Shown: piece after piece, positions 30,495 through 64,000 of the stretch
How the letters are laid out: each line of letters starts with the position of its first letter
How positions within the stretch are numbered: position 1 is the first letter of the stretch
DNA from: a virus
Taxonomy: Duplodnaviria > Caudoviricetes
IMG/VR virus record: IMGVR_UViG_3300018719_000041
Coordinates: 2,037-66,036 of that record
Length of the DNA: 64,000 bases
Strand: one strand, 5' to 3'
Made by a program: the position numbers and the translations under genes
The notes under the pieces: model-generated
What the model was told of the DNA's origin: nothing
What the model saw: only the letters and a program-made list of their open reading frames with translations
The model's database searches: none

Positions 30495-30497
30495 ACC

Positions 30498-31982: not shown

Positions 31983-31994
31983 GGAAAACCGTAA

Positions 31995-34442: not shown

Positions 34443-34469
34443 GATCGCGCGTCACGATCGAACTGACCT

Positions 34470-34502: not shown

Positions 34503-34542
34503 ATATTGACCCGCTCTTCTTCCAGATTCGAGGAGAAACTTC

Positions 34543-34872: not shown

Positions 34873-34881
34873 GGAGCTTCC

Positions 34882-36110: not shown

Positions 36111-36114
36111 TCCC

Positions 36115-36579: not shown

Positions 36580-36588
36580 GAGCCTGCC

Positions 36589-37482: not shown

Positions 37483-37487
37483 AAGGA

Positions 37488-37847: not shown

Positions 37848-37849
37848 CG

Positions 37850-38227
37850 ATGTCTGCCGGGATGAACCGCAAGACCGGCTATCGGCTTTCAGGCTGGGAT
37901 CACGTCCTGCAATCCCTGACCGACATCCTCACTACGATGGTCGGAACGCGCGTCATGAGACGCACCTACGGTAGCATGGTCCCTGCACTGCTTGGCCGCC
38001 CGATCAACCGGACGACCGTGCTGCGGTTCGCCACCGCCATCGTGGTCGCCATCGAGCTGTGGGAACCCCGGTTCCGCGTCAAGCGGATCACATTCAGGCG
38101 CTCTCAGAACAGCCCGGAACAGACCCGCCTCGGCTCCTTGTCGATGGTGATGGTCGGCGAGTACCGCCCGCGCGGCCATCTCGGCGATCCGACGCCGGAA
38201 GCCCAGGACCGCACCCTCACGATCTAG
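37850..38227 (+). CDS. Baseplate wedge gpW/gp25
   Basis: GMNR.TG, QSL.DILTT..GTRVMRR.YGS and WEPR motifs. Confidence 0.9.
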   Translation: MSAGMNRKTGYRLSGWDHVLQSLTDILTTMVGTRVMRRTYGSMVPALLGRPINRTTVLRFATAIVVAIELWEPRFRVKRITFRRSQNSPEQTRLGSLSMVMVGEYRPRGHLGDPTPEAQDRTLTI

Positions 38228-38268
38228 GCCGCGCCGTCCCGTTCGGCCGGGTCCAGCAAGGTTCCCCG

Positions 38269-40280: not shown

Positions 40281-40288
40281 GAGATCAT

Positions 40289-43555: not shown

Positions 43556-43565
43556 GGACACGTCA

Positions 43566-45008: not shown

Positions 45009-45403
45009 TGCCGTACTTCCGCTTGGTCGATGGGGTGGAGGTCGAGGTCTCCGAAGGTGAGGCTTTGGCTCAGGCAAATGCACTCATTGCCATGGCCAGT
45101 TTACCGTCACTATCCGCACGGCAGTTCTTCCATGGACTCTGGAAATATGGCCTCATCAGTTATGAAGAGGTCAGATCGGCCGTCAAGAATGGCGACATTC
45201 CCGCGGCAATGATGGTTCTGATCCAGAGCCCGGAATTCGCAGCGCAACTCCCCGATACCCTGACGGTCGAAGATGTCATCGTTCTCGTCGAGGGTGCGCA
45301 GACCTATGAGTTCACCCATCCTGTGACCGTTGCCATCGGTGGGCTCTATTGGGAGGATCCTGAACAGTTCCGGGCATTCTGGAACTTCTGCGCGACACTT
45401 TGA
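45005..45403 (+). CDS. Tail fiber assembly-like protein
   Basis: LSARQF...HP...FW...ATL; follows the fiber gene. Confidence 0.65.
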   Translation: MMPYFRLVDGVEVEVSEGEALAQANALIAMASLPSLSARQFFHGLWKYGLISYEEVRSAVKNGDIPAAMMVLIQSPEFAAQLPDTLTVEDVIVLVEGAQTYEFTHPVTVAIGGLYWEDPEQFRAFWNFCATL

Positions 45404-45450
45404 TATCGACCCGCGTCGCTCACCGCGATCCGCCCCCATCCTCCCCAACA

Positions 45451-45478
45451 AGCCGCCGCTCAGGGCGGCTTTTCTTTT
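45451..45478 (+). terminator. Intrinsic terminator
   Basis: AGCCGCC-GCTCAG-GGCGGCT followed by TTTCTTT. Confidence 0.65.
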
Positions 45479-45493
45479 GCAAGGAGCACAGAG

Positions 45494-47362
45494 ATGACCG
45501 AGCCGACCTTCGGCATGACTTTCCTGAGAGACGGCACGGAAGTAATGCCGACGCCGCCCAGCGACATGAGCATCATCGGTATGGTGTTGCCGTCCGACGA
45601 TGCCGACTCGTCCGCGTTCCCCCTGAACGTGGCGGTCGACTTCAACTCGACGGACCTGAACTATCTGAGCAAGATCGGCACGGGCCCCGCCTATCGGGAA
45701 CTGCTGAAGCTCAACTCCCAGCTCGCTCCCCTGCAGGTCGGAGCGCGGGTGATCTTCGTCCGCGTGGCCGAAGGCTCGACCATCGACGAGACCATCGCCA
45801 ACATCGTCGGCAATCCCTCGGCGGGCGCCGGCTGGTACGCCATGCTCCAGGCAGGGCAGCGCCTCGGTGCGATCCCGCGGCTTCTCGCGTCGCCTGGCTT
45901 CACCGGCCACTTCACCCGCACGGCTGGCGCGACCACCGTCACCAGCGCCGCCAAGAGCGGAGGCAATACGGGCAATGGCACACTCACCCTCGCGAGCGCG
46001 CCAGCCTACGGCGCTGATGTCAGGGCCGGTATCTATCAGGTCCGCTGCAAGGGCGGCACTTTCTCGGCCGCGGCTGCTGCGGCTGCAGGCAATTCCGGCA
46101 ACGGGGCGATCTCAGGCGTCGGTGCCGGAGTCGGCGCGACGGCGGGCGTCTACAAGGTCACCTGCCTTGCAACGGCGACCAACGGTGGATCCTTCGTGGT
46201 CGAAAACCCGCCTGGGACCGCCGTCGGCATCGCTACGGTCGGGACGCCCTATGCTGGACCGGTGACGTTCACCATTGCGGACGGCAGCGGCGACTTCGAG
46301 GTTGGGGACACGTTCGAGATCACGGTCGCGCCCGCCGTGCCCGCCAATGGTGGCGTGTTCTCTGTGGTTGCACCGGACGGCACGGCTCTCGGCGACGCCA
46401 CGGTCGGGACGCCTTACGACAGCAATCACATCAAGTTCTCGATCGCGGACGGCTCGACCGATTTCGCGGTCGGCGACGGCTTCGACGTGACCGTCAGCGT
46501 GACCGGCGGGGTTGCGACAGCCAACCCGGTTTGCGCGATCTTGCCGTCCATCTGCAACGCGCTCCTCGCGAAGGCTTTCGTGGGCGGTCCCCGCACCACG
46601 AAGCGGGACGCCATCGACTGGCGCGAGACGATGAACAGCGAGACGCTGATCCCAGTCGATGCGCCCGTGATCGTGGCTGGCACCGATGGCTCGGGCAATC
46701 CGATCCAGATCGAGGAAGACGGCGTGATGCTGGCCATCGGTCAGCAGATCGCCGCCGACTTCGAGAACGGAGGCATTCCTATGCAGGCTCCGGCCAACCG
46801 GCCGGTGCAGGGGATCCTCGGCCTCGGCCGATACGATTCCTTCTCGCTGACGGATGGCGCCACGGACGGACAGATCCTGCTCGCCAACCAGGTCGGCATC
46901 ATCCAGCGCGGCGAGTTGGGCGTGGAAACCGCGGTCTCCGATTCCGGCTTCGTGGTGATCTGCACCGACACCGCATCGGACGATCCGAACTGGCGCATGA
47001 TCAATGTCTGCCGCCTGCGCGACTACGAGCATCTGATGCTGCTCCGGGCAACCCGTCGACGGCTCGGCCGGACGAATATCACCAGGCACGGGGTCCAGGC
47101 TGTCCTCAACGATCATATCGCGCTTCTGTCGGACCTCGAGCAGAAAGGCGCCATCCTTCCTGGCTGGAAGGTCGGCTTCGAGCAGGACAAGAACAATCCT
47201 GAGAACCTGCGCCTGGGCCGGATCCGCACGTTCTACGCCGCGGAGGAGCCACCGACCCTCAAGCATGTCTCGATCGACAGCCGTCGGAACCGCGAGTCCC
47301 TGAACATCCTGATCGAGGATCTCGTCGCACAGACCAATCAGCTGTTCGGCGTAGCTACCTGA
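45494..47362 (+). CDS. Tail sheath protein with inserted repeat domains
   Basis: PRLLASPGFT, PANRPV.GI, W....V.R.RD and NLRLGRI motifs. Confidence 0.88.
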   Translation: MTEPTFGMTFLRDGTEVMPTPPSDMSIIGMVLPSDDADSSAFPLNVAVDFNSTDLNYLSKIGTGPAYRELLKLNSQLAPLQVGARVIFVRVAEGSTIDETIANIVGNPSAGAGWYAMLQAGQRLGAIPRLLASPGFTGHFTRTAGATTVTSAAKSGGNTGNGTLTLASAPAYGADVRAGIYQVRCKGGTFSAAAAAAAGNSGNGAISGVGAGVGATAGVYKVTCLATATNGGSFVVENPPGTAVGIATVGTPYAGPVTFTIADGSGDFEVGDTFEITVAPAVPANGGVFSVVAPDGTALGDATVGTPYDSNHIKFSIADGSTDFAVGDGFDVTVSVTGGVATANPVCAILPSICNALLAKAFVGGPRTTKRDAIDWRETMNSETLIPVDAPVIVAGTDGSGNPIQIEEDGVMLAIGQQIAADFENGGIPMQAPANRPVQGILGLGRYDSFSLTDGATDGQILLANQVGIIQRGELGVETAVSDSGFVVICTDTASDDPNWRMINVCRLRDYEHLMLLRATRRRLGRTNITRHGVQAVLNDHIALLSDLEQKGAILPGWKVGFEQDKNNPENLRLGRIRTFYAAEEPPTLKHVSIDSRRNRESLNILIEDLVAQTNQLFGVAT

Positions 47363-47446
47363 TCCGGCCTGCGACAATCCCGCTCCAGTGCATGACGCTG
47401 GAGCGGGCCTCGCCCTTACCGTTATCAATTCTGGAGTGATCCGACT

Positions 47447-47977
47447 ATGCCTCTACTCATCCAAGAGGGCGCGAACCTGTACGTTGGCGACGACACGCCA
47501 AACGCCAACAAGCGCAATAATCTCGCCTCGATCAAACTACCGATGCTGGAGGAGATCACGGCCGACCATCATGCCGGCGGCGCCATCGGCGCCATCAAGG
47601 TCGGCGGCCTCGGCCTCTCGGCCCTTGAAGCGACCTTCAAACAGGTCGGCTGGGATCCGCAAACCCTGAGCCAGTTCGGTCTCGGGCAGCGCGGCCGCCA
47701 GCCTTATACCTGCTACGGCCTCATCCGCGACAAGAGCATCAGCAACCGCGCGATCGAGGTCAAGGCGATCATGTGGGCTCGCCTCACGAAGATCGAGCCT
47801 GACGAATTCCAGCGAGGGGACGCTCTCCTTGGGCACGATCACACGCTCAGCGAGATCCTGCGCTATGCCGTGTGGTTCGATGGCGAGGAGAAATATTACT
47901 ATGATTGGGAGGCCGGCACGTGGCGCGTGGACGGCATCGACCAGAACGCGGATGAACGAGACATCCTGCGATACTGA
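47447..47977 (+). CDS. Tail tube protein (P2 FII-like)
   Basis: IKLP.L..IT..H..GG and VDGIDQ motifs; follows the sheath gene. Confidence 0.85.
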   Translation: MPLLIQEGANLYVGDDTPNANKRNNLASIKLPMLEEITADHHAGGAIGAIKVGGLGLSALEATFKQVGWDPQTLSQFGLGQRGRQPYTCYGLIRDKSISNRAIEVKAIMWARLTKIEPDEFQRGDALLGHDHTLSEILRYAVWFDGEEKYYYDWEAGTWRVDGIDQNADERDILRY

Positions 47978-47998
47978 ACTCAGCGGGGCCGCCGAGCG

Positions 47999-48340
47999 TC
48001 AGGCCTCGGCGGATTCCGTCGTTTCGAGGGGGCGACCTTGAAGCGCTTGGAGTTCGGATATGACCTGATCGCGGTGCTGATGAATATGCGGATCCTCGAG
48101 TTCCAGGTTCAGAAGTATCCAGCCCATCACCACAATGTTGAGGAAAATGCCGACACAGGCCTTGGCCGCAAGTTGGGTCCACACCGCGCCGAGATATGCC
48201 GCCTCGGCGATGTTGTAGGAACTGCGTGTTGCTCCTCTCACATCAGAAAGGTCGATGCCAAGAATGATGGCACCAACGACGTTCGCGACCAGGAGTAATA
48301 TGACGAGGATAGCGCCGAAAGTGTTGACCCTTACTGCCAT
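47999..48340 (-). CDS. Antisense moron, two-TM membrane protein
   Basis: Two hydrophobic helices; GGAGAG RBS; inserted in the tail operon. Confidence 0.7.
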   Translation of the reverse strand: MAVRVNTFGAILVILLLVANVVGAIILGIDLSDVRGATRSSYNIAEAAYLGAVWTQLAAKACVGIFLNIVVMGWILLNLELEDPHIHQHRDQVISELQALQGRPLETTESAEA

Positions 48341-48452
48341 TTGACTCTCCGTCCTGAAATCACGTCACTGAACGTGATAACCTATCATGAGTCAATCCCC
48401 AGCTGGTTCGGCAGTCGTAAACCTAAAATCCTTCGAGAAAAGGATCACCAAC

Positions 48453-48860
48453 ATGCTTGATGATGACCCCACGCCCATGTCCGCAGCATCGCCGCCGGTG
48501 GTACGCTTCGAATCCCAGGAAGGACGCGCCCGCGAGCAGACCGTTCCCCTTGAATGGCCATTCTTCTACGGCGAGCGTCGTGTCGATGCCATCGTTGTTC
48601 GTCGGATGACCACTGCCCAAGTCGAAGCCTATGTCGAGACTCTCAAGGAGGCTGAGGAGAAGATCTCGCCGCCGATGCTGTTCTTTCCTGACGGCGTGCC
48701 CGTGCCGAGCGAGGTCCTCGACGCGATGGACAGTGATGACGAAACGACATTGTGCGAGGCTATTACCCGTTTTTTGCCCCGCCGCTTGCGACCGGTCAGC
48801 GCGCCAACCCCACCCTCTGGCGTGGATACGGCCTCTCAGTCGCAAGCCACCTCAATCTGA
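48453..48860 (+). CDS. Tail assembly chaperone (gpE-like)
   Basis: VPLEWP, VRRMT, LD.MD.DD and FLP motifs; RBS AAAGGA. Confidence 0.82.
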   Translation: MLDDDPTPMSAASPPVVRFESQEGRAREQTVPLEWPFFYGERRVDAIVVRRMTTAQVEAYVETLKEAEEKISPPMLFFPDGVPVPSEVLDAMDSDDETTLCEAITRFLPRRLRPVSAPTPPSGVDTASQSQATSI

Positions 48861-48994
48861 AACCCCACGACATCCGAGCCATGGACTGGCTCGATCTCCT
48901 CGCCTGGTACGAGGAGGCAGTCGTGCTTGGCCTAGTGGAGCCTGTCGATGGCGGCAACCAAAACCTCTCAGCTCGTCGTCCGCTTACGCGATGA
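48770..48994 (+). CDS. -1 frameshift extension of the chaperone (gpE+E'-like)
   Basis: Slippery T-TTT-TTG at 48770-48776; -1 frame encodes IRAMDWLDLLAWYEEA. Confidence 0.72.
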   Translation, partial: FFAPPLATGQRANPTLWRGYGLSVASHLNLKPHDIRAMDWLDLLAWYEEAVVLGLVEPVDGGNQNLSARRPLTR

Positions 48995-50918
48995 GGTGAC
49001 CGCCCCGGCCGGTCGGGCGTCTCGCTCTCTCAGGAATCTCAAGAACGAAGCCCGAGACAGCGCCAGCATCGGTAGCAGCATAGCCGGGATCAGTCGTGCC
49101 GCCCTTGCGCTCGGCGGGACCACCCTTGGTGTCTATGGCTTGAGCCGGGCCATAAGTGACACCGTCAAAAAGACCGCGGACCTAGAACGGCGCATGACAC
49201 GGATCCGCCTCACGGCCGATGCGTCTGCAAGCGCCATGGCAGCCGCCACGACGAAAATGCAGGATCTTGCCGTCGAAGTAGCTCTTCCTTTCGATAAGAT
49301 TGCCAGCGGCATGGAGGCGCTTGTCGCTCAGGGACGGACGCTGCCGGAGGCGCTCGCCTTTCTTCCTGCCGTGGCCCGTACTGCGCAGGCGGCCGGTGCC
49401 GAGGTCGACGATATTGCACGTTCGGCGGGCTCCCTCGGCGATCAGTTCAAGATAGCCGCCGGCGAAATGCAGCTCGCCTTCGACATGATGGCCGCCGGCG
49501 GCAAGGCAGGGCAGTTCGAACTCAAGGACATGTCTCAATATTTCCCTAGCCTCGCCGCTCAGGCAGCCGCACTCGGATTCAAAGGGACGGACGGTCTGGC
49601 CACTCTTGTCTCTGCGCTCCAGATGGTGCGCAAGAACACCGGCACGGCAGGCGAAGCGGCAACCTCGCTCTCGGACGTCTTCGGCAAGATGGAGAGCAAA
49701 GACACCATCAAGGCATTCAAGAAGAACTTCGGCATCGATCTTGCAAAGTCGTTTGCGAAAGCCCGCAAGGAGGGCCGCAATCTGTTCGAGGTCCTCGAGG
49801 CCGCGATCGTCAAGATCGCAGAGAAGGACCTCTCAAACGTCAACAAGGTTTTCACCGACAAGGAGGCTCGCCGCGGCGCCCTGGCGATCGCTCAGTACGC
49901 GCAGGAGCGACGGAAGCTCGATCAGCAGATCCGCACCGAGTCGAGCGGGACGGTCATGAACGACCTGGCGGCCGTCACGAAAGACGCTCAGGCCGAACTC
50001 GATCGGCTGAGCGAGAGCTGGGACGCTTTTCAAAAGAGGCTCGGCAAAAAGATCGAACCGGCGGTTGTCGGCGTTCTTCGTAGCATCCGCGAGCAGCTCG
50101 ATGGCACCAGCCAGCCCCGAGCCATCGATCTGCCGGTGGTCCGCCCAGGCATCAACCCGGCATCGAAGCCGGACCGGGAGCGCATCGACCGTCCAGCCCC
50201 TGGCAGCGGCGGCTCCCGGTCCCGCGAAAAGAGCGAGTTTGTTCACGATCCGGAGGTCTAATCCACCCGCCAGTTCATGAACACCTTTGCGAAGGGCATG
50301 CGGGCACAGCGGGAGCGGCAGGCAGGGACGTCGGTCAGCTCGACGGAGCAGTATGTCACTCAGGTCAGTGTGCCGAACCTGATTGCCGAAATCCGCGCCC
50401 GGGCGAAAGCCGCGGGCGGGGTGACGGAAGGGCAGTCGATCCGGGAGCAGATGGCGGCCGAGGCCGAGCTGGAGCGGCTCGCACAGCGCCACATCGCAGC
50501 CAGGCGGGCCGAGGCGGATCGAACCGGCCCGGGGCCGTCGCCGGCTGACGAGATGGAGTTTCGGACAAGGGTGCCGGAACTGCACCGGATCGTCATGCAG
50601 CAGGACGCTGCCCGCAACGGTCAGGCGTCACCGGACGAGACTGCCATCGCCAGCCATGTCCAGGAGACGTTCAGGCAGGTGGAGGGCAGCATTGCAAACA
50701 CGCAGCAGGCGCTCCAATCGCTTGAAAAAACCGTCACGCCCAACGTGGATCTTGCATCACTTCGTGAGACCGACTCGCTGCTGGATTCCATCCTGAAGAA
50801 ACTCGGCCAGATCGGTCCCGCCATCCAGAGCGCCGGAAGCGGGATCTCCTCGCGGTCGTTCGGGCGTCATTTCGAATCCCGTCAGAGCGGGTCGTTCTCC
50901 GACTTCGAGCATCGGTAA
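48948..50918 (+). pseudogene. Tape measure gene interrupted by one in-frame TAA (50259-50261)
   Basis: ORFs 48948-50261 and 50277-50918 share a frame; GKAGQFELKDM..YFP tape-measure core. Confidence 0.65.
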
Positions 50919-50929
50919 GGATTGAGCGC

Positions 50930-51358
50930 ATGCTGTATCAGGTTGGGGCGCTGACGTTTCGCGTCACGGCGCCCAACATCCACGAGGTCGAGAAGGAGGC
51001 AGCGGCCGACTTCGCCGAGAAGGACGTCATGGGGACGCTGCGCCCCCTGGAGGCGATGGGGGAGGGGCCGAGCACCTTCACTCTTCGCGGGCGCCTTTAC
51101 CCTCGCCGGTGGGGAGGGCTCTCGAGTCTCGATCTTCTGGAGCAGATGCGCCTTGCTCAGGATTCGCACATTGTCATCCGCGGTGACGGCGTGAACCTGG
51201 GTTGGTGGGTCATCGACCGTTATCGCGAGAAGCACAATCAGATCGGGCGGACAGGTATCGGCAGCACCATCGATTACGAGGTGGTGCTGAAAAAATCCCC
51301 CAAGCCTCCGACCGCCCTGGGCTACGTCGTCACGCTGATGAGGTTGATCGGGTTATGA
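50930..51358 (+). CDS. Tail protein (P2 gpU-like)
   Basis: MLYQVG...F, LE.MGEG...TL.G and GDG.NLGW.VI motifs. Confidence 0.85.
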   Translation: MLYQVGALTFRVTAPNIHEVEKEAAADFAEKDVMGTLRPLEAMGEGPSTFTLRGRLYPRRWGGLSSLDLLEQMRLAQDSHIVIRGDGVNLGWWVIDRYREKHNQIGRTGIGSTIDYEVVLKKSPKPPTALGYVVTLMRLIGL

Positions 51359-51582
51359 CCATCGAGACGCTCCCTCCCGTGGACACCGAGTTCACGACGC
51401 TCGATCTGCTGCTCTACCGCCGTTTCAGGCGTGAGATCCTGGGCTTTGTCGAGAAGACGCTCGATCTCAATCCTGGCCTCGCCGATCTTGGTCCATTCTT
51501 GCCGATGGGAACTGAGGTGAAGATCGAAGTTCCAGTGCCCGTGAAGGCTCGCCCCGTCCGCATCCTTCGCCTGGTCAATTGA
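51355..51582 (+). CDS. Tail protein X
   Basis: VE.TL.LNPGLA.LGP.LP.GT. Confidence 0.85.
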   Translation: MTIETLPPVDTEFTTLDLLLYRRFRREILGFVEKTLDLNPGLADLGPFLPMGTEVKIEVPVPVKARPVRILRLVN

Positions 51583-51594
51583 GGTGGGTAAGCC

Positions 51595-52653
51595 ATGACA
51601 TCACATGTCATCATCAATATCAGCGAGCAGGTCTTCGAAGCGGTCACGGGATCGGGCGACGAGTCCGACAGTCTCGGCTCTCAGGTCATGTCCGTGAAGA
51701 TCACCGACGCATCGGGCAAGACGGCAGATACCTGCGAGATCGAGCTGAACGACATGGACGATCAGATCGTCATGCCGCGCAAGAACGCGCCGATCGAGGT
51801 CATCCTGTACCGGGACGACAAGCCGGGCGCGATCACCTTTAGCGGTTGGATCGGCGTCCCCAGCTCTCGCGGTGCACGCGGCAGCGGACAGGTCATCCTG
51901 ATCGAGGCCAAGGCCGCTGACATGCGCAGCGGCTTGAAGATCCGAAAAGAAAAGCATCTCGACGATTCCACGTTCGAGCAGGCTGCACAGGCGTTCGCCC
52001 CGGATGGCGTCACGGTCAAGATCGCGGGCGAACTCGGCCAGATCCGCCGCGATTACTGGTACCTGGGCCGAGAGAACTTCATGCACTGGGCGCAGCGCAC
52101 AGCGGCCGAGCTGGGCGCCACGTTCAAGATCATGGGGACCACGGCCGTCTTCGTGCCCATGAACTCAGGTCAATCCGTCTCCGGGAAGCCGCTGCAGACC
52201 ATCGAGGCGACGAAGGGCGTCAACATCATCAGCTGGGATATGTCGCCCGAGAACGAGCGCAACGACCGCGACGAATTCGAGGTCACTTGGTATGACCCCG
52301 CAGACGCCAAGTGGAAGACGCAGGACGGCACAGTCAAAGTGATCGGGCGCGGCAACACCGGCACTTATGGCTACTCCGCAGCAGACCAGGACACAGCCGG
52401 GCATATCTCGAAGTCCCTCAAGAAAAAGAAGGAGCGGGAGAGAGGCGGTGGCGAGGTTACCATCGACGGCGAGCCTGCCGCTCAAGCCGAAGCCTTGTGC
52501 GTGGTTACGATCCGCCCCGGCATCTCCGGCACCTACCTGATCGACAAGGCCGAGCACAGATGGACCCGCAAGCAGGGGTTTCTCACCAAGCTCGATTTGA
52601 AAATGCCAAAGGACGCGGCTGGAACGGACGATCGCGATTCCTCTGACGACTGA
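51595..52653 (+). CDS. Late control D / baseplate hub protein
   Basis: ITD..G..ADTCEIEL.D, GATFKI and G.Y.I....H motifs. Confidence 0.85.
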   Translation: MTSHVIINISEQVFEAVTGSGDESDSLGSQVMSVKITDASGKTADTCEIELNDMDDQIVMPRKNAPIEVILYRDDKPGAITFSGWIGVPSSRGARGSGQVILIEAKAADMRSGLKIRKEKHLDDSTFEQAAQAFAPDGVTVKIAGELGQIRRDYWYLGRENFMHWAQRTAAELGATFKIMGTTAVFVPMNSGQSVSGKPLQTIEATKGVNIISWDMSPENERNDRDEFEVTWYDPADAKWKTQDGTVKVIGRGNTGTYGYSAADQDTAGHISKSLKKKKERERGGGEVTIDGEPAAQAEALCVVTIRPGISGTYLIDKAEHRWTRKQGFLTKLDLKMPKDAAGTDDRDSSDD

Positions 52654-52676
52654 ATCCCTCACAATTGGAGACGATC

Positions 52677-53009
52677 ATGACTGCACAGGCACGGATCGAG
52701 TGGGTCGAGCTTGGGGCTGGCAAGCTTCAGGACGGCCTAGGGCACAACATCATCAAGGCCTTTCATGGAGCCTTGACGATCGGAGTCGACACCACGGCCA
52801 CCGCAGTCGGTGACCGGCCAGTAGCGCCGGTCACCGGTTTCGCCCTCGTTCGTCACGCGGGAGGCTCCGACAACCCGATCGTCGTGAACGCCTGGGGGGA
52901 CGATCCCGTCGCAACGGCAGCGAACGGCAAGGCGGTCTATCCCGGCGAAGAAATCCCGATCCATGTCGCGAAGGGCCAGAAGCTCTCGCTCATCGAGATC
53001 GCGCCATGA
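52677..53009 (+). CDS. Hypothetical virion-associated protein
   Basis: RBS GGAG; DPVAT...G.KLS.I pattern. Confidence 0.6.
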   Translation: MTAQARIEWVELGAGKLQDGLGHNIIKAFHGALTIGVDTTATAVGDRPVAPVTGFALVRHAGGSDNPIVVNAWGDDPVATAANGKAVYPGEEIPIHVAKGQKLSLIEIAP

Positions 53010-53146
53010 TCTCCTACACCTTCGGCTACGGCTACGGCTTCCGATCGAGCCGGGGGCAGGGGCGACTCACGATCACCTTCGGCGCCATCATCACTAATGG
53101 CGGCGATCCCATCGCCACAGCGCGCGGCGACATCCTCACCCTCTAG
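53006..53146 (+). CDS. Small protein (46 aa), below the ORF track cutoff
   Basis: Manual translation MISYTFGYGYGFRSSRG...; ATGA overlap; stops 8 nt before the esterase ATG. Confidence 0.5.
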   Translation: MISYTFGYGYGFRSSRGQGRLTITFGAIITNGGDPIATARGDILTL

Positions 53147-53154
53147 GTCATTCC

Positions 53155-54993
53155 ATGACGAAAATCTCTCTGACGCCGGAGAAGGTTCTCTTCTCCGAAC
53201 GGGACCGCTTGCCTGCCTACGACGCCGCCCTCGACCGCTGGGGGCATACGCAGCCCGGCTACGACATCGCTGTCATCGCCGGACAGTCCAACGCGGTCGG
53301 GTTCTCGGGCAATGCCTCGGTGGATTCCAAGATCGACTGGAAGCACAACCGCATCTGGCAGTGGTCTCCGACCGGAGCCGGTGAGCCCGACTATGCGCTC
53401 AAGCGCCTGGAGATCGAGGAGCCGCTTCGTTTCCAGCGGTTCGAGAACATTCCCGACATTGATCAGACGAAATGGGGTCCGAGCTGCGGCACCTGGTTCG
53501 GGCGCGAGAGCGTGCCGTTCTTAGGCCCAAACCGCGACATCGTGCTCATCCCGGCTGCCGTCGGCGGGTCGAACATCAACGATTGGAACCCGGTCAACGG
53601 GCCGTTCTTCCTGCTGGCGCGGGATGCGCTCCTCGCAGCTCTCGCTGCGCTTCCGAACGCGCGGTTGCGCTGGATCATCCGCGTGCAGGGCGAGGCGGAC
53701 GTGGCGCAGGGCATGGACCCGGCGGAATACGAGACCAAGCTCGACGCGGAGATCGATGGCTGGCGCGCGATCCCGACCGCCGAGACCGCCACGATCATCC
53801 TCGGCAGCATGCCGCCGAGCTGGGGCAATATCCGCGTGCCCGGCAGTCAGGGCCATGCCATCGACCAGATCCATCGCAACACGCCACTGCGCAAGCCGCG
53901 CTGCATCTACGTGCCGGGGCAGGATACCGTTGTGGTCGGTGACGGGATTCACTACGATGCCGCCGCGCAGCGGGAGAACGGCCGCCGCATGGCGATCAAG
54001 GCCCGCAGCGATTGCGTCCTGACGAATGGCGCAGTTCTCGGCGTTCCGTCCGATCTGCGCGTATCGGGAGCGACCGTCACTTGGAAGGGACCGCTGTCCG
54101 ACGCTTCACACTATGCCGTCGAGCGGAGGCCTGCGGGCTCGATGGGGGCCTGGACGCGCATCACATATAGCCCGAAACTGTTCTCCGCGCCCGGCGCCGA
54201 CGTGTCCTACACCTTCGACGATCTCAGCGGCGACACCGAGGTCCGGGTCGCGAGCATGTATCACGACAAGATTTCTGACTTCACCGACCTGGTCGTCGTA
54301 TCCTTCGTCGCGGTGCCGCAGCATACCTTCCTGCTCGACATCGCCAATGCGAGCGTGGGTGGTGACGGAAAGATCGCCAGCGTGCCGAACCTCGGCACTG
54401 ACGCGATGCCTTGGACGGCTCCGTCCGGCAAAGGACCGGAGCAGGTTGTTGTCGGCGCTCGGGCGAGCCTCGTGACGGAGCCGGCGGACGCATATCTGAC
54501 CTATGGGAACGCGCCGAGCGGCGCGTCCTATACGTGGGAGATCGTGGTCAACCACGACGACTTCGAGGCCCAAGGCGTCTACCTGATCGACGGCGGTAAC
54601 GGTGTGCCGTTCTCGATCTGGCGCGGCGGCCATCTCAGCCGCAAGGTTTATGTAGGGCAGGCGGGGGTCGGCGATCTCATCGTGGTCGGGCAGATGCAGG
54701 CCGGTGCAGATTACGTTCTGCACTCAACCTACGACCTCGCGACACAGACGCTCTCCCTTTACATCAACGGCGACCTGGTCGGGCAGGCGACGGGGGTGTC
54801 CGCCATGCCGTCGTCCGGGATCGTGCTCAACGCCCTCGCCAATGGAACCGGCGGCAACAACGGCCGGTATCACTCGGTCGGAGGCTGGATCGGCACGGCG
54901 CTGACGCCGGAACAGGTCAATTATCGCAAGACCCTCCTCGTCAATGCCCTCGATCTGACGCTCGGGGAACTCGGGCCCGAAGCTCTCGGCTGA
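53155..54993 (+). CDS. SASA/SGNH carbohydrate O-acetylesterase + FN3-like + LamG-like domains
   Basis: AGQSN, QGEAD and DGIHY motifs; C-terminal TYD.....LYING. Confidence 0.85.
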   Translation: MTKISLTPEKVLFSERDRLPAYDAALDRWGHTQPGYDIAVIAGQSNAVGFSGNASVDSKIDWKHNRIWQWSPTGAGEPDYALKRLEIEEPLRFQRFENIPDIDQTKWGPSCGTWFGRESVPFLGPNRDIVLIPAAVGGSNINDWNPVNGPFFLLARDALLAALAALPNARLRWIIRVQGEADVAQGMDPAEYETKLDAEIDGWRAIPTAETATIILGSMPPSWGNIRVPGSQGHAIDQIHRNTPLRKPRCIYVPGQDTVVVGDGIHYDAAAQRENGRRMAIKARSDCVLTNGAVLGVPSDLRVSGATVTWKGPLSDASHYAVERRPAGSMGAWTRITYSPKLFSAPGADVSYTFDDLSGDTEVRVASMYHDKISDFTDLVVVSFVAVPQHTFLLDIANASVGGDGKIASVPNLGTDAMPWTAPSGKGPEQVVVGARASLVTEPADAYLTYGNAPSGASYTWEIVVNHDDFEAQGVYLIDGGNGVPFSIWRGGHLSRKVYVGQAGVGDLIVVGQMQAGADYVLHSTYDLATQTLSLYINGDLVGQATGVSAMPSSGIVLNALANGTGGNNGRYHSVGGWIGTALTPEQVNYRKTLLVNALDLTLGELGPEALG

Positions 54994-55010
54994 CCGGCCG
55001 GGATCATAGC

Positions 55011-55036
55011 GCCGCCTTCGGGCGGCTTCTTCTTTT
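55011..55036 (+). terminator. Intrinsic terminator
   Basis: GCCGCC-TTCG-GGCGGC followed by TTCTTCTTTT. Confidence 0.7.
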
Positions 55037-55056
55037 CCACCATCAAGGGCATTTCC

Positions 55057-55761
55057 ATGCAAAGCGTGCGTGACGTTCAGATCGCGCTGCGCCGGCTCGG
55101 CTATGACCCTGGACCCGCCGACGGCATCCAGGGCCGCCGCACCATCGCGGCCATCAAGGCATTCCAGAGGGACCAGAAACTCCATGTCGACGGTGTGGTG
55201 GGCGCCGTCACCCTGGCGCGGCTCTTTCCCGGCGGGTCGACCAGGCCGGAGCCCGCAATCTTCGTGCCATGGTACGCGGAGGCCTCGCGGCTCATGGGGA
55301 CGCGGGAGATCGAAGGGCCGAAGCATTCCTCCGTCATCATGGGGTGGGCGGAACGGCTGGGGCTCTGGTATCCGTCGGACGAAACCGCGTGGTGCGGCCT
55401 CTTCGTGGCCCACTGCATCGGCGCCACGCTGCCGAACGAACCCCTGCCGGCAAACCCGCTCGGCGCCCGCAACTGGACCAAGTTCGGCCGGGCCCTGCAG
55501 GAGCCCGCCAGTGGCGCGGTGGCGGTGTTCTGGCGTGGATCCAAGACCGGATGGCAGGGGCATGTGGGCTTCGTGGCGGCGGTTCATAAGGACGACCGGA
55601 GCCTGCTGATCCGCGGCGGCAACCAGGGCAACAGCGTCTCCGACGCCTGGCTTTCCACGGACCGCCTTCTTTCTCTCCGCTGGCCGTCGACGGCGGCGCT
55701 ACCACTCTCCCGCGTCCCTGTCTCAATCGTGGGCGGAGAACTGTCCACCGACGAGGCCTGA
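55057..55761 (+). CDS. Endolysin: PG-binding + NlpC/P60 (TIGR02594-like)
   Basis: Q..L..LGY.PG.ADG..G; DETAWCG.FV, GHVGF and GGNQ motifs. Confidence 0.88.
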   Translation: MQSVRDVQIALRRLGYDPGPADGIQGRRTIAAIKAFQRDQKLHVDGVVGAVTLARLFPGGSTRPEPAIFVPWYAEASRLMGTREIEGPKHSSVIMGWAERLGLWYPSDETAWCGLFVAHCIGATLPNEPLPANPLGARNWTKFGRALQEPASGAVAVFWRGSKTGWQGHVGFVAAVHKDDRSLLIRGGNQGNSVSDAWLSTDRLLSLRWPSTAALPLSRVPVSIVGGELSTDEA

Positions 55762-55815
55762 GATCCCGCGCCCGGCCGGACCCGCCGGGCAACCTCCCAA
55801 CGAACGGAAAATCCT

Positions 55816-56331
55816 ATGAAACCATCCCACCATCTGTTTGCGGGCGCTGCGGCTCTGGCTGTGGCACTCGTGGCCTTCACTCTAGCAGCATGCCTCTCCC
55901 CGCCGGCTCAGGCCGCCACGGTCACCATCCCCTATGGCGATCAGATCGCGGAAGGCGCGCACATCGCGAGCGCGGTCATCACGCCGCTGTTGCTTCTTCT
56001 CCTGTCGAAGCTGACAGGACCTGTCGGGCTTTTCCTGCGCACCTTTCTAGGCGAGAGATTGATCCGCAACGCGGTCGATTATGCGGTTAACGCCGTCGAG
56101 GGGGCCTCCAAAGGCAAGACGCTCTCGGTCAATGTCGGTTCCGAGGTGCTTGCGCAGGCGGTTCAATATGCGCTCGACCAAGGGGCGCCGTGGCTCGTGT
56201 CGAAACTCGGTGGACCGGAAGGCATCAGGCTCAAGATCTTCAGGGCTCTGGACCTCGAGGAGGATGCCAGCGTCAAGCTGCTCAAAGCGCCTCCCGTGAA
56301 TGCCTTGGCGACCATCCGTAAGGCCAGCTGA
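55816..56331 (+). CDS. Membrane protein of the lysis cassette (holin-like)
   Basis: Multiple hydrophobic segments; follows the endolysin. Confidence 0.6.
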   Translation: MKPSHHLFAGAAALAVALVAFTLAACLSPPAQAATVTIPYGDQIAEGAHIASAVITPLLLLLLSKLTGPVGLFLRTFLGERLIRNAVDYAVNAVEGASKGKTLSVNVGSEVLAQAVQYALDQGAPWLVSKLGGPEGIRLKIFRALDLEEDASVKLLKAPPVNALATIRKAS

Positions 56332-56386
56332 TCACACCTGCGCCCCTTTGGGCGCAGGTACGTCATGAAAACAATGGGGGCAGGCA

Positions 56387-56752
56387 GTGGCTGAGCCAGT
56401 ATCTACGAGCGTCCAAACCGCTCTTCTCGTGAGCGCCGCAACGGGCGGCGCCGTCTCTGCGCTACGACGAAAGGGCCCGTGGTGGGTTCGGTTCTCCGCG
56501 GGCTTCAGTGGCGCGGCCGCGTGCTACTTTCTGACACCGATCGCCGCGCCCATCGCCGAGCTCGCGATAGAGAAGGCAATCGTCACGCTTCTCGGAACCC
56601 CCTTGGATCTCGACACAGCCGGCGTGTGGGGAGCCGTTGGTTTCCTCATCGGCTCGACCGGTCTTGAGCTGATGGAGATCCTTGTCGACGTGCTGCGGGG
56701 CGAACGACGCCTTTCCGATCTCTTGGGCGGCCGAACAAAGCCGGCCGCCTGA
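56387..56752 (+). CDS. Putative holin
   Basis: Small multi-TM protein (GGAVS, FLTP, GFLIG..G). Confidence 0.65.
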   Translation: MAEPVSTSVQTALLVSAATGGAVSALRRKGPWWVRFSAGFSGAAACYFLTPIAAPIAELAIEKAIVTLLGTPLDLDTAGVWGAVGFLIGSTGLELMEILVDVLRGERRLSDLLGGRTKPAA

Positions 56753-58242: not shown

Positions 58243-58551
58243 CTAATGCCTTTGGAACTGATTGAGAGCGTCTGTCCCTGGCGCACGAGCATATAGCTCT
58301 TTGATGTTGATCATCATTCGAATGTTGCGGCCACCGCACTCCGAGCAGCGGAGCCGGAGGGCCATGTCGGGCACGGGCAGATCAAGAGGCCAGCCTGCCA
58401 GAGGAACTTCGGCTTCATGATAGCAACGTATTGCCTCGCAGTAGGCCAAGACGGTCCGGTATCCCTCCGCGATGCTCATCCCCACGGTGACAGGCGGGAT
58501 TTCGTTGCGGTTCTCGTCATAGGCACGGCGGGGATTGCGGCGGGATCTCAT
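58243..58551 (-). CDS. Small Zn-ribbon protein
   Basis: CEAIRC.H...RLRCSECG. Confidence 0.7.
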   Translation of the reverse strand: MRSRRNPRRAYDENRNEIPPVTVGMSIAEGYRTVLAYCEAIRCYHEAEVPLAGWPLDLPVPDMALRLRCSECGGRNIRMMINIKELYARAPGTDALNQFQRH

Positions 58552-58727
58552 CTGGAAGACCGTGGCGGCACGGGAAGCCTTCTTAAGGTATGGCCCAGCA
58601 CAGCCTTTTGGAGCGCCATCCGGTGGACACCGTAGTCCGTGGCCAGCTTCTCGAACTCCTTCTCGCCTGACGCATACCGGAGGCGGTCCTCCAATACCTG
58701 ATCGACCGCCAACATTTCGCGCTTCAT
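58548..58727 (-). CDS. Small HTH-like protein
   Basis: LATDYGVHRMALQKAV; ATGA overlap with the next gene. Confidence 0.55.
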   Translation of the reverse strand: MKREMLAVDQVLEDRLRYASGEKEFEKLATDYGVHRMALQKAVLGHTLRRLPVPPRSSR

Positions 58728-58746
58728 GCCTTTGGTGACTCGATGC

Positions 58747-58761
58747 GAACGAAGAAGGAAC
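58747..58761 (-). promoter_or_regulatory. LexA (SOS) box
   Basis: GAAC-GAAGAAG-GAAC, about 20 nt upstream of ATG 58727. Confidence 0.7.
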
Positions 58762-58958
58762 ATGAAGGAGGATAGGAGAGGTGTCGAGAACCTAAAACCC
58801 CAATGACATCACGCAGTGAAGAATGGGGATAAGTTGGAAATGTGCGGCACCGAGCGAACGCGTCTGGTTCTGCCGCAGCCGAAAATGAGCAGGTCTCAAA
58901 CTGGCCGGATTGACCCAGTTAGTATCTTGTAACAGTCTCCGCCTTAAAGGGGGCGGGC

Positions 58959-59690
58959 ATGTCGCGCAAAGCCTTTGAAAGAACGCTGGAGTTCATTCGC
59001 GCGCTCGACGAGGCCAAGAGCCCGGCCGAGATCTGTGAAAGGCTTCTGGCTTCAATCAGGCAGTTCGGGGCGGAGTATGTTCTCGCGGGCACCATTCCGG
59101 GCCCAGGTACGAGCCGGCAGCAGCAGATGTCGAGTGTCGTCCTCGATCATTGGCCGAAGGAGTGGAGCCAGCGCTACTTTTCCCACGGTTACATCTTTCG
59201 GGATCCGGCGATCAAAGCGGTCAGGATGAGTCCGTCCTCGTTCCTGTGGAGTGAGCTGGAGCCTGTCTGTCGAGGCGACACCCAGGCGCGGCGCATCATG
59301 GACGAGGCCAGGGATTTCCGGCTCAAGCAGGGGGTCACGATCCCTTTGACGATGCTCGACGGCGACGTGGCGGGCTTTTCGATTGCCGGGGAGCGCCTTG
59401 ATCTGTCTCCGGAGGACCGCGGCGTTCTCACCCTCCTGGCCACTTACGCCCTCGGCCGCTCGATTTTCCTTCGAGAGGCAGGCGATCGGACAGAGATCAA
59501 GCTGACGCCTCGGGAAAAAGAGACGCTCCAGTGGGCGGCGGAAGGCAAGACCGAGTCTGAGATCGGTGAACGGATGGGCATCTCGGAGCATGGGGTCGAC
59601 AAGCATATGCGCTCTGCTCGCGAGAAGCTCGGGACGAGAACCCGAACTCACGCTGTCGCGGAAGCATTGCGCCTGCACCTCATCAAATGA
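58959..59690 (+). CDS. luxR: LuxR-family AHL receptor (LuxR2, cognate of the synthase)
   Basis: W...Y........DP...FLW...G pocket; LTPREKETLQWAAEGK HTH. Confidence 0.92.
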   Translation: MSRKAFERTLEFIRALDEAKSPAEICERLLASIRQFGAEYVLAGTIPGPGTSRQQQMSSVVLDHWPKEWSQRYFSHGYIFRDPAIKAVRMSPSSFLWSELEPVCRGDTQARRIMDEARDFRLKQGVTIPLTMLDGDVAGFSIAGERLDLSPEDRGVLTLLATYALGRSIFLREAGDRTEIKLTPREKETLQWAAEGKTESEIGERMGISEHGVDKHMRSAREKLGTRTRTHAVAEALRLHLIK

Positions 59691-59692
59691 AG

Positions 59693-59710
59693 AGTACGGG
59701 ATCGCGTACT
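59693..59710 (+). promoter_or_regulatory. lux-box-like 18-bp palindrome upstream of luxI
   Basis: AGTACGGGA|TCGCGTACT, 8/9 symmetric, 54 nt before the ATG. Confidence 0.65.
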
Positions 59711-59764
59711 TATGCCCCTTTGAGAGGCTGGCCAAATGTCAGCATCCAACCAGTGAGGGGCACC

Positions 59765-60397
59765 ATGATCCATATCGTTACGCCAGAAAATGAATACCTG
59801 TTCCGCAATGAGATGGAACAGGCCTACCGGCTGCGGCACCGCGTTTTCGTCGAGGAGAAGAAGTGGAGGGATCTCGCGAAGCCGGACGGGCGGGAGATCG
59901 ATCAGTTCGACAATGAATATGCCGTCCACATGCTCTACATCGAGGAAGGCAGGGTGCTGGGCTATCAGCGCATGTTGCCGTCCACGCGTCCGCATCTCTT
60001 GTCGGATGTACTGCCTCAGCTTTGTGAGGATGAGCGCCCGATCGGCGCTCACATTTGGGAGTGGACCCGGTATTGCGTCGAGCCGGCGCATCGCGAGCGC
60101 GGACGCACGCTAAGCCCGGTGGCGAATGCTCTTCTCTCCGGTATCGTCGAGTGGGGTCTCGAGAACGGGGTCAATTCGATCATCATTCAAATGAACCCGT
60201 TGTGGTTGCTGCGCCTGGTGCAGCTTCACTTCCGCACGATGCCTCTCGGGCTGCCCCAGAGGATCGGAGATGAAGACGTCGTCGCAGTCACGGCTTCCTT
60301 CGATCGTCGGACACTCACACGGCTTCAGGAGATGCGCGGCGACACGCGGCGTGTTCTTGCGGAGCCGTGGAGGGCGATCCAGCGCTTGGCCGGATAG
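59765..60397 (+). CDS. luxI: LuxI-family acyl-homoserine lactone synthase (BjaI/RpaI-like)
   Basis: RLRH.VFV...W, EIDQFD, RMLP, IWEWTRY and PLGLP motifs. Confidence 0.92.
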   Translation: MIHIVTPENEYLFRNEMEQAYRLRHRVFVEEKKWRDLAKPDGREIDQFDNEYAVHMLYIEEGRVLGYQRMLPSTRPHLLSDVLPQLCEDERPIGAHIWEWTRYCVEPAHRERGRTLSPVANALLSGIVEWGLENGVNSIIIQMNPLWLLRLVQLHFRTMPLGLPQRIGDEDVVAVTASFDRRTLTRLQEMRGDTRRVLAEPWRAIQRLAG

Positions 60398-60399: not shown

Positions 60400-60627
60400 A
60401 TGGACAGGAAAAAGGCGGAGATTGCCCTGGACGAGGAGCTGATGATCCTGCAGTTCTGGGCACATGGAGTAGACATTCTCCATAGGTTTAGTCAGGAGCA
60501 GCTCCAGGCAGTACCAGGCCTGAAGGAGGCGATCGATGCGGTCTCCAAGTTGCCGGATGAGATCGGCTGGGGTGATGAACCGCAGCACCTGCCAAGGCGC
60601 GGCAAGGATCGAACGGGCAAAGCCTAA
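60400..60627 (+). CDS. Small protein directly after luxI, CinS-like antirepressor candidate
   Basis: ATG 2 nt after the luxI stop; IL..FS......PGL.EAI..V resembles recalled Rhizobium CinS. Confidence 0.6.
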   Translation: MDRKKAEIALDEELMILQFWAHGVDILHRFSQEQLQAVPGLKEAIDAVSKLPDEIGWGDEPQHLPRRGKDRTGKA

Positions 60628-60636: not shown

Positions 60637-61020
60637 TTAAGTCTTCGCTATGGCATTAGCGAGGTCCAGAAGAGCCCGGCGCACGGCCGGGCTCTCGATT
60701 CGGGTGAATGCTTTGGCGAGGTCTGTCCCGTCACGGCTGCTCAGAAAAGCCTGAATGGCGGTTGCCTCTTCGGTTGAGGTAGTGAGCCCTGACTGTCCCT
60801 CGAAGAAGGAAGATACCGGCACATCCAAGGCGTTGGCGATCTCTTGCAAGCGCCCTGACCCGATACGGTTCGTGCCCTTCTCGTATTTCTGAACCTGCTG
60901 GAAGGAAACCCCGAGCATCTCTCCAAGTCGCTCCTGACTGAGGCCAGCAAGCGTTCGAAGAAGACGAATACGAGCTCCGATATGTCTATCGACCGCGTTC
61001 GGGGATTTCTGAGACATCAT
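60637..61020 (-). CDS. PraR/PhrR-like XRE transcriptional regulator
   Basis: PN.VD.HIG.RIR, SQERLG..LGVSFQQVQKYEKGTNRI, VPVS.FFE and FLSS.DG..L..AF..I motifs. Confidence 0.88.
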   Translation of the reverse strand: MMSQKSPNAVDRHIGARIRLLRTLAGLSQERLGEMLGVSFQQVQKYEKGTNRIGSGRLQEIANALDVPVSSFFEGQSGLTTSTEEATAIQAFLSSRDGTDLAKAFTRIESPAVRRALLDLANAIAKT

Positions 61021-63739: not shown

Positions 63740-64000
63740 TTAGGCGCCACGTGCCGCTAGCAGGCGCCCCGTCGTGGCCTTGATCTCCTCCGCCGCCTTC
63801 AGCCCTCGAATGCCGATCACGCCGCGGTCGATAGTCTTCCCATCCGCATCCTTCCTACCGTTGAAGAAGGTATCCCGCTGCTCCTTACTCATCTTTAAGA
63901 CGGCTCGGGCCTCGCATTCATGTTGCCATTCCTCAGACCAGGTGTTGACGGGCTGGCCGGTGAGCTCGGAAATTGCGGTCGTCTCGCGGGAGTAGGTCAT
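63740..64000 (-). CDS. Conserved hypothetical protein of phage-associated type
   Basis: V.TWSEEW.HECEAR.VL ... RG..AA pattern. Confidence 0.65.
   Translation of the reverse strand: MTYSRETTAISELTGQPVNTWSEEWQHECEARAVLKMSKEQRDTFFNGRKDADGKTIDRGVIGIRGLKAAEEIKATTGRLLAARGA

Follow-up and report, generated by a model that had tools for sequence, protein, structure and literature searches.

Can a temperate phage carry a complete acyl-homoserine-lactone (AHL) signaling system, and from which acyl donor would its synthase build the signal? The question is raised by a luxI gene in a stretch of Caudoviricetes DNA from IMG/VR record IMGVR_UViG_3300018719_000041. The stretch, hereafter the window, is 64,000 nucleotides long and covers bases 2037–66036 of the 66,036-base record, which IMG/VR classes as 'provirus' with a CheckV completeness of 100. 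An initial reading of the DNA letters (the original prediction) had proposed an acyl-coenzyme A (acyl-CoA)-dependent AHL synthase and, from this, an unusual signal. The element is a temperate myovirus prophage of ~66 kb, and its host is a Microvirga-like alphaproteobacterium from soil. The reading we favor, at a probability of about 60%, is that this prophage carries as cargo a functional LuxR/LuxI AHL quorum-sensing cassette with a CoA-type synthase.

An intact luxI gene

The gene, luxI (59765..60397, plus strand), encodes a 210-residue LuxI-family AHL synthase (P0002) within an in-frame open reading frame (ORF) that is open over 59687..60397 (plus strand). A start at 59693 had been proposed; this position falls inside the luxR–luxI spacer, on a conserved palindrome, and the protein beginning MIH starts at the ATG at 59765 and ends with the stop at 60397. 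All 10 orthologous loci compared conserve this ATG and the codons following it, and the sequence before it varies and is not coding-like. The assignment as an AHL synthase is borne out by Pfam Autoind_synth (PF00765), whose score of 81.4 bits exceeds the cut-off of 24 and therefore reflects no chance match. All motifs quoted in the original prediction are present, namely PDGREIDQFD (residues 40–49), IWEWTRYCV (97–105), MNPLWLLRL (143–151) and PLGLP (160–164). In a 76-sequence alignment, the family-invariant residues R24, D46, D49 and R69 are all found in the window LuxI, and its W34, E44, E99 and R102 are each at least 90% conserved. An AlphaFold2 model built from 76 sequences adopts a GNAT-type fold with a predicted local distance difference test (pLDDT) score of 94.8, and Foldseek recovered all solved LuxI folds with this model. 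Judged from its sequence, the gene is a real and intact LuxI-family AHL synthase.

A conserved luxR–luxI cassette

luxI is part of a cassette with the conserved order luxR, GTACG-N6-CGTAC box, luxI, small ORF and convergent XRE regulator; neither this cassette nor the surrounding prophage had been noticed in the original prediction. The 243-residue LuxR (P0003; 58959..59690, plus strand; Autoind_bind 96.1 bits, GerE 52.7 bits), the cognate AHL receptor and transcription factor, is always encoded directly upstream of luxI in relatives and is 54–81% identical in Microvirga-type loci. The 74 bp between the end of luxR and the luxI ATG hold AGTACGGGATCGCGTACT (59693–59710), within which the lux-box-like palindrome GTACG-N6-CGTAC (59694..59709) lies 55 bp upstream of the ATG. 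All 10 orthologous luxR–luxI spacers agree in its ten specified bases, whereas the flanking bases vary. The box occurs once in the window at up to 1–2 mismatches, and a single match was also obtained in 41–47 of 100 shuffles; since a single chance site is this common, the evidence for the box is its conservation and not its rarity. A promoter consensus scan of 56.7–61.2 kb returned 0 sites.

The small ORF directly after luxI (60400..60627, plus strand; ATG at 60400, with a GTG at 60367 that would overlap luxI) encodes 75 residues and matches no Pfam or NCBIfam family. Eight Microvirga-type loci and one IMG/VR locus (L060; pairwise E 3e-8) conserve it at this place and in the same direction, with L17, W20, A21, L41, G56 and W57 invariant. 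Convergent with luxI and the small ORF is a gene for a 127-residue XRE/HTH_3 regulator (60637..61020, minus strand; HTH_3 53 bits), whose homologs, 37–54% identical, occupy the same place in L004, L009, L011, L015 and L016. This layout recalls CinI–CinS/PraR of Rhizobium and MmaI–MmaP/PraR of Methylobacterium, where an XRE-family regulator is the proposed target of a small ORF right after luxI (PMC10790750, PMC4149787) and the small protein is described as co-transcribed and as binding the XRE-family factor (PMC10790750). The 75-residue product is thus a candidate CinS/MmaP-like partner, likened to these by gene layout and not by sequence (MmaP has 59 residues); in the window, the XRE gene even lies next to the small ORF.

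A predicted complex of the small protein with the XRE regulator, computed from our own alignments, gave an interaction prediction score from aligned errors (ipSAE) of 0.35 against 0.01 for the best control, a value classed as 'weak support'. At least 83% of contacts recur between runs, and the pLDDT of the partner is 67 or more. In the benchmark, 116 of 157 solved complexes and 2 of 215 mismatched pairs attained the mark; the range up to 0.60 holds only 18 of the 157 solved complexes and both passing mismatches.

In the mechanism we propose, LuxR would bind the signal and the conserved box and drive luxI in a positive feedback loop. It would also drive the translationally adjacent gene for the 75-residue protein, whose own target is probably the convergent XRE regulator, by analogy with PraR as the target of CinS and MmaP. 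The synthase, from the alphaproteobacterial lineage to which the only proven acyl-CoA-dependent synthases (BjaI, RpaI, MesI) belong, would most likely take its acyl group from acyl-CoA, and the phage may benefit through lysogenic conversion or lysogen-to-lysogen signaling.

Substrate class of the synthase

We searched all PDB chains with the window LuxI using phmmer, and seven distinct sequences matched at E up to 0.01. Three enzymes whose PDB entries are each titled CoA-dependent stood at the top, BjaI at 1.7e-35 (125.9 bits), MesI (6wns) at 2.1e-35 (125.6 bits) and RpaI at 9.8e-35 (123.4 bits), whereas the enzymes dependent on acyl carrier protein (ACP) scored 8.9e-20 (TofI, 74.5 bits), 1.4e-14 (LasI, 57.5 bits) and 8.9e-7 (EsaI, 32 bits). 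Foldseek gave the same division. BjaI ranked first (template-modeling score, TM, 0.88; root-mean-square deviation 1.3 Å), with RpaI at 0.89 and MesI at 0.87/0.93, against 0.69 for TofI, 0.76 for LasI and 0.61 for EsaI. A TraI-type synthase was ruled out, with 77.4 and 76.5 bits for the NCBIfam equivalogs NF052393 and NF010408 against cut-offs of 250 and 292.

BjaI, the isovaleryl-homoserine lactone (HSL) synthase of Bradyrhizobium japonicum (5w8a/c/e/g), is thus the best match in both sequence and fold. The two proteins have in common the MIH start, PDGRE(I/V)D, IWEW(T/S)RY and PLGLP, together with a Met at the 'IME/QMN' position, a Tyr after the conserved Arg and a non-basic residue at position 9 of the ACP helix. 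They differ in that they are only 34% identical and belong to different clades, that the window LuxI has a five-residue insertion, SPVAN (117–121), and that the first platform Trp of BjaI is Leu in the window. The BjaI strings on which the comparison was originally built, IWEWSRYFV and METWWLPRF, match BjaI chains 5w8a/5w8c in the HMMER alignment, and one Trp of the pair is indeed kept, with window L146–W147 aligned to BjaI W142–W143 (chain residues 144–145).

For phylogeny, the homolog pool comprised 2078 proteins at E up to 0.001, from which the best 150 cluster representatives were taken. A quick tree of 134 rows retained sequences of 185–300 residues, with fragments and fusions dropped and named loci and plasmid genes added; a careful tree contained 74 hand-picked rows, among which the Pseudomonas phage Y5 row (branch length 6.0, wrong reading frame) was disregarded. 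Reference rows were labeled by PDB phmmer as BjaI-like (P0233, 313 bits), RpaI-like (P0198, 214 bits) and nearest MesI (P0171, 197 bits), the MesI label resting also on the M. japonicum pMLb gene, which is almost identical to 6wns as aligned. In the quick tree, TraI and the B. elkanii plasmid enzyme fall outside the 131-row clade holding the window (Shimodaira–Hasegawa-like approximate likelihood ratio test, SH-aLRT, 98), and the window's 61-row clade (97) is nested in an 88-row clade (SH-aLRT 89) with the MesI-, BjaI- and RpaI-like rows. In the careful tree, TraI-type, SolI and Acinetobacter 'lasI' rows lie outside the window's 70-row clade (100/97), inside which a 60-row clade (90/82) forms an unresolved three-way split of 6, 17 and 37 rows. 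The 17-row clade (81/86) contains all three CoA-type references, including the MesI-like rows, and the 37-row clade (100/99) contains the window. The window LuxI therefore stands apart from TraI and SolI in the same lineage as the aryl-CoA synthases RpaI (6wn0) and BraI, but only in the quick tree does it fall inside the proven CoA clade. All CoA users then known were placed in one clade by Christensen et al. (PMC4234381). The window's clade is the nearest neighbor of the proven CoA enzymes, not demonstrably a part of them.

The ACP-docking helix fits CoA use. The CoA-user clade is described as having no conserved exposed basic residues there, notably at logo position 9 (PMC4234381), and this position is Q153 in the window LuxI. 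The corresponding residue is Lys in TraI and Arg in the B. elkanii plasmid enzyme; in our own alignment, which sets the helix register, it is Ala in SolI. R150 of the window LuxI is the conserved buried Arg at helix position 6. The second feature is the 'indole platform', a pair of Trp residues (BjaI W142/W143, RpaI W146/W147) reported to underlie CoA preference in work on Aeromonas AhyI (PMC8188788). Like the window LuxI, Mesorhizobium MesI (6wns) keeps the second Trp only (F-W versus L-W), as does the MesI-like row, so the Trp pair is not universal among CoA enzymes. Taken together, much closer kinship to CoA than to ACP synthases in sequence, fold and tree stands behind the predicted acyl-CoA dependence, while the sister position to the proven clade and the half-kept platform limit it. 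We consider it probable that the window LuxI uses acyl-CoA rather than acyl-ACP.

What acyl chain it transfers is harder to read. T140 of EsaI and T142 of LasI are reported to bind the 3-oxo group, and T105Y in MplI, a long-chain acyl-CoA enzyme of 'cluster 2', to raise C4-HSL and lower C12-HSL (PMC8188788, citing Dong et al. 2020). In the window LuxI, M143 occupies the position of a Thr in TraI, and Y103 follows the conserved Arg; BjaI has the same residue at both sites. Y103 would correspond to MplI T105. An attempt to place MplI in the tree failed, with Thr after the conserved Arg in 6 of 134 rows over three clades and MplI not locatable. With low confidence, these residues, together with the single platform Trp (W147), suggest an acyl chain without a 3-oxo group, either compact or of short to medium length. 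An aryl-HSL product was considered and set aside for lack of a ligase gene nearby and of any RpaI-type features seen; RpaI itself keeps WW (W146/W147) and holds p-coumarate with Q124 (PMC8188788), and no aryl-CoA ligase gene lies near the window luxI.

The step from CoA dependence to an unusual, biosensor-invisible signal is not a necessary one. MesI is reported to prefer hexanoyl-CoA and to make mainly C6-HSL (preprint 10.64898/2026.05.13.724834), so an unusual signal does not follow from CoA use. The same preprint sorts CoA enzymes into four clusters with both aliphatic and aromatic products, and in the Greenberg group's work KEGG K18096 serves to sort CoA types, with a warning that expression in E. 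coli can mislead (PMC10470506). We regard an unusual acyl-HSL product as doubtful, and a private signal invisible to biosensors as a guess. A limited literature search found no paper characterizing the product of the window's clade. Microvirga AHL synthases are mentioned as untested in one source (PMC6780248), and Microvirga is named as a possible donor of the myxobacterial AgpI type in another (PMC12919014). AgpI expressed in E. coli is reported to give C8- and C9-AHL (PMC7862692); the consortium Microvirga LuxIs of the AgpI literature are 44–46% identical to AgpI.

Distribution of the synthase and cassette

The closest LuxI homologs, 79–89% identical, come from Microvirga spp. Homologs at 63–74% are found in Methylocella, Methylocapsa, Salinarimonas, Ciceribacter and some Bradyrhizobium metagenome-assembled genomes (MAGs), and at 58–59% in eight Methylobacterium species; overall, 144 of 401 genomes of the order have a LuxI match. 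In other Microvirga genomes, only the unit luxR–luxI–small ORF(–XRE) is common, with a DNA match to window positions 58958–60585 and different flanks. A 71% identical LuxI and its luxR are encoded on plasmid pMc1192 of Mesorhizobium ciceri (L084, 5189–12573), next to a trb operon for conjugative transfer; plasmids are therefore another vehicle of the window's synthase clade. When plasmids were searched with the Methylobacterium homolog, no M. radiotolerans appeared among the best 25 of 113 records. Among phages, INPHARED yielded LuxI-like matches to P0002 in 6 of 50,697 records, all below 34% identity. A Methylocella MAG (L013) has two LuxI genes of the window's clade (1602–2174 and 3439–4044; 69% and 65%) less than 2 kb apart, followed by an XRE gene.

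The prophage and its right arm

Phage genes were identified by Pfam on 66 window ORFs and by PHROG scans. The temperate myovirus body (1..56752) contains genes for RecT/YqaJ recombination proteins, a primase and a helicase, a Dcm methylase, TerL, portal, protease, capsid and cement protein, and a contractile tail (baseplate, fibers, tube, tape measure, gpU). A CI-like repressor with HTH_3 and Peptidase_S24 domains is encoded at 10842–11612 (minus strand), and a gene scan of the record start placed a tyrosine integrase at record bases 1–1170, just left of the window. The late genes end with an endolysin (55057–55761, plus strand; PG_binding_1 and CHAP, PHROG endolysin family), whose homologs in the related proviruses L065 and L091 are 61–65% identical, a lysis-region ORF (55816–56331, plus strand) and a holin-like ORF (56387–56752, plus strand; PHROG holin family), the last phage late gene. 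An intrinsic terminator with a 13-bp GC stem and T-run (56813–56842) closes this operon. It lies inside an Rfam mmgR/suhB-type match (RF00519; 56777..56856, plus strand; 48.7 bits, gathering score 41), which is either a phage-borne copy of the alphaproteobacterial small RNA family or a terminator mimicking the model; four related loci contained no RF00519-type match.

The right arm beyond the lysis genes is a cargo region, in which the cassette sits downstream of a second luxR. This gene (P0004; 57181..57921, plus strand, with TTG 57139 as an alternative start; Autoind_bind 102.9 bits, GerE 51.2 bits) is the first past the phage terminator, encodes a LuxR-type receptor that has an intact autoinducer-binding domain but no synthase of its own, and is ~31% identical to the luxR of relatives. 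It has no orthologue next to luxI in other Microvirga loci and for this reason may listen to host or foreign signals. Two small minus-strand ORFs without a helix-turn-helix (HTH) domain lie upstream of the cassette luxR; a small phage ORF at 58548..58763 (minus strand), on the left flank of the cassette, has a 52% identical homolog beside a DUF7696 gene in L091. To the right of the cassette lie genes for a secreted non-specific endonuclease (61377–62330, plus strand; Endonuclease_NS 164 bits), an overlapping 84-residue ORF (62327–62581, plus strand), a possible inhibitor or immunity protein, and an Excalibur-domain calcium-binding protein (62653–62916, plus strand; 24.7 bits). This trio is syntenic at 72–79% in another Microvirga genome (L079, 3156–4603) and thus forms a second portable cargo unit beside the cassette. 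The last gene, DUF7696 (63740..64000, minus strand; PF24751, 74.6 bits), is att-proximal, and the record ends at its start codon.

That this cassette copy lies within the prophage is supported by related elements and by the window itself. In L076 and L091, homologs of DUF7696 at 84% identity are separated from attR or a tRNA gene by 1.2–1.5 kb. The L076 island of M. pakistanensis (3746–11428; G001:C706) is 7.6 kb long, sits at tRNA-Phe between 23-base direct repeats of the tRNA 3' end, and combines an integrase 84% identical to that of the prophage with a DUF7696 gene 1.2 kb inside the far repeat. A related lysis region was found in 1 of 76 Microvirga species genomes (L091), where the endolysin is followed by the homolog of ORF 58548–58763, then directly by DUF7696, with tRNA-Gln 1.5 kb on. 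In the window, 5 kb of DNA carrying the cassette and the nuclease genes separates this ORF from DUF7696. No tRNA gene, tRNA fragment or copy of the tRNA-Phe att core was found anywhere in the window. A second virus record, L061 (63.7 kb), parallels the arrangement: its integrase end and lysozyme flank genes for a 65% identical LuxI, a luxR convergent with it and a homolog of the small ORF. The right end of the related provirus L065 has other cargo and gives no boundary information, and a scan of metagenome contigs for the parent contig of the record found nothing. The window's lack of a tRNA or att core, the flank adjacency in L091 and the parallel in L061 together place the cassette inside the prophage.

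Several further features accompany these elements. The 7.6-kb L076 island and the 66-kb phage have both 'ends', the integrase and DUF7696, in common, and the island also carries a long pentapeptide-like gene with a 15-nt tandem repeat. In the early region of the prophage are a ParE-like toxin with an HTH partner (18599–19258, minus strand), a DprA-like protein and, next to it, a protein with a phosphoribosyltransferase domain (20263–22567, plus strand; within a stretch of low GC, 0.54) and a C-5 cytosine methylase (24088–25284, plus strand). Between the tail genes and the endolysin lies a 612-residue SASA-type carbohydrate esterase with a laminin-G/concanavalin-like domain (53155–54993, plus strand), which may be a deacetylase on the tail that modifies surface polysaccharide of the host.

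Alternative explanations

Several observations weigh against the favored reading, and they are taken here with the alternatives. In the careful tree, the window's 37-row clade and the 17-row CoA-reference clade are sisters, the first not nested in the second, which leaves the phylogenetic bracket for acyl-CoA use incomplete; within the window's own clade, we identified no member with demonstrated acyl-CoA use. The WW indole platform is reduced to L146–W147, some clade members have no Trp there at all, and Pfam on the window ORFs found no CoA ligase or crotonase gene beside luxI. Furthermore, a LuxI encoded beside rhiABC and a luxR-type gene (L085/L089, on a Rhizobium leguminosarum plasmid) falls inside the 37-row clade, and RhiI is reported to make C6–C8-HSL (PMC5977203). 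The synthase could thus be an ordinary acyl-ACP-dependent LuxI producing a common straight-chain or 3-hydroxy (3-OH) AHL, with its likeness to BjaI, RpaI and MesI due to shared alphaproteobacterial ancestry. An ACP-using ancestor has been inferred for the LuxI family (PMC4234381), and the layout matches CinI/CinS and MmaI/MmaP, whose products are reported to carry 3-OH (PMC5977203, PMC10790750), a group we read as typical of fatty-acid synthesis intermediates. However, the three solved CoA enzymes beat every solved ACP enzyme by at least 50 bits and by 0.1–0.25 in TM, helix position 9 is not basic, and MesI, CoA-dependent by its PDB title, also has no first Trp. Nor would a plain chain prove ACP use, as MesI makes C6-HSL from hexanoyl-CoA (10.64898/2026.05.13.724834). 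We therefore hold ACP use to be possible, at odds clearly short of even. The rhiABC-linked enzyme is itself only ~35% identical to the window LuxI and belongs to a different sub-clade (8 rows, 100/98), and the CB782 gene is named RhiI by synteny only.

The placement and role of the cassette invite two other explanations. The provirus boundary, predicted from gene content, might overshoot a true phage end at ~56.85 kb and leave the cassette in the host chromosome or a neighboring island. The strong terminator at 56813–56842 ends the late operon, GC falls from 0.66 to 0.57–0.59 past 56 kb, attR lies beyond the record, which stops at DUF7696, and the cassette occurs in eight other Microvirga-type loci without homologs of this phage's genes nearby, which marks it as a mobile unit that is not phage-specific. 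This explanation is nevertheless very unlikely given the absence of a tRNA gene or att-core copy from the window, the adjacency of the bracketing ORF 58548–58763 and DUF7696 between endolysin and tRNA gene in a related prophage, the pairing of DUF7696 with the same integrase family in the repeat-bounded tRNA-Phe island, and the repeated arrangement in L061. With the cassette inside the prophage, it could act as a decision circuit, in which the signal reports lysogen density and steers lysogeny versus lysis and the extra LuxR hears the host or other phages. Phaeobacter prophages provide a precedent (10.64898/2026.07.02.736140), the element has two LuxR-type receptors for one synthase, and the module includes an XRE regulator and a small protein whose predicted contact, at the ipSAE given above, is weakly supported. 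Yet the gene order departs from hth<->xre-luxR-luxI, a CI-like HTH and S24 repressor of the phage itself is encoded 47 kb away from a cassette that sits in the cargo region after the lysis genes, and the same cassette is found outside phages in related genomes. No second LuxR box was found elsewhere in the prophage window; with the box only before luxI, no direct link to phage genes is visible. A decision circuit is accordingly unlikely, and the favored reading remains a quorum-sensing cassette carried as prophage cargo.

Discussion

Phage LuxR-type receptors are already known (PMC6456758, PMC10432266). For complete phage LuxI/LuxR systems, the literature we found comprises one 2026 preprint, which describes them in Roseobacter prophages only, as a lysis–lysogeny switch. 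There, four-gene hth<->xre-luxR-luxI modules of Phaeobacter prophages are reported to replace CI/Cro and drive lysogeny (Bunsick et al. 2026, 10.64898/2026.07.02.736140). As presented in the preprint, when Alphaproteobacteria with at least two luxI genes were screened, the Roseobacter clade alone yielded prophage modules, and Hyphomicrobiales matches were put down to tra and rhi genes of plasmids and left aside (10.64898/2026.07.02.736140). Those modules and the window both join a LuxR/LuxI pair to XRE-type regulators in an alphaproteobacterial temperate phage. In contrast to the Roseobacter modules, the window has no divergent hth, its XRE gene lies downstream and convergent, its phage retains the CI/S24 repressor (10842–11612) instead of having CI/Cro replaced, and the cassette differs in its cargo position after the lysis genes, in LuxI lineage and in host order, Hyphomicrobiales. 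What distinguishes the present case is a cassette in a temperate phage outside the Roseobacter group, wired unlike the published phage modules. In a prophage of a plant-associated Hyphomicrobiales genus, such a cassette from the BjaI-related lineage would mean that phages, too, move quorum-sensing channels between soil bacteria, and that lysogeny can give a host a new signal.

The RhiI/RhiR system of Rhizobium leguminosarum offers a second comparison, since its rhiABC-linked LuxI shares the window's 37-row clade and also resides on a mobile element, a plasmid. This clade is large, extending over Microvirga, Methylocella/Methylocapsa, Methylobacterium and a Mesorhizobium plasmid, and we identified no characterized member in it beyond the RhiI-like gene named from synteny alone. 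One enzyme assay in the clade would label many genes.

In a speculative extension, to which we give little credence, the phage of soil and rhizosphere Microvirga would spread a channel of its own, comprising a CoA-type synthase with a non-standard acyl-HSL, a receptor, an anti-regulator and an eavesdropping LuxR, by which lysogens count each other and tune lysogeny, superinfection or host behavior. If true, the Roseobacter phage quorum-sensing switches would have a counterpart in Hyphomicrobiales, based on another LuxI lineage and wired in another way.

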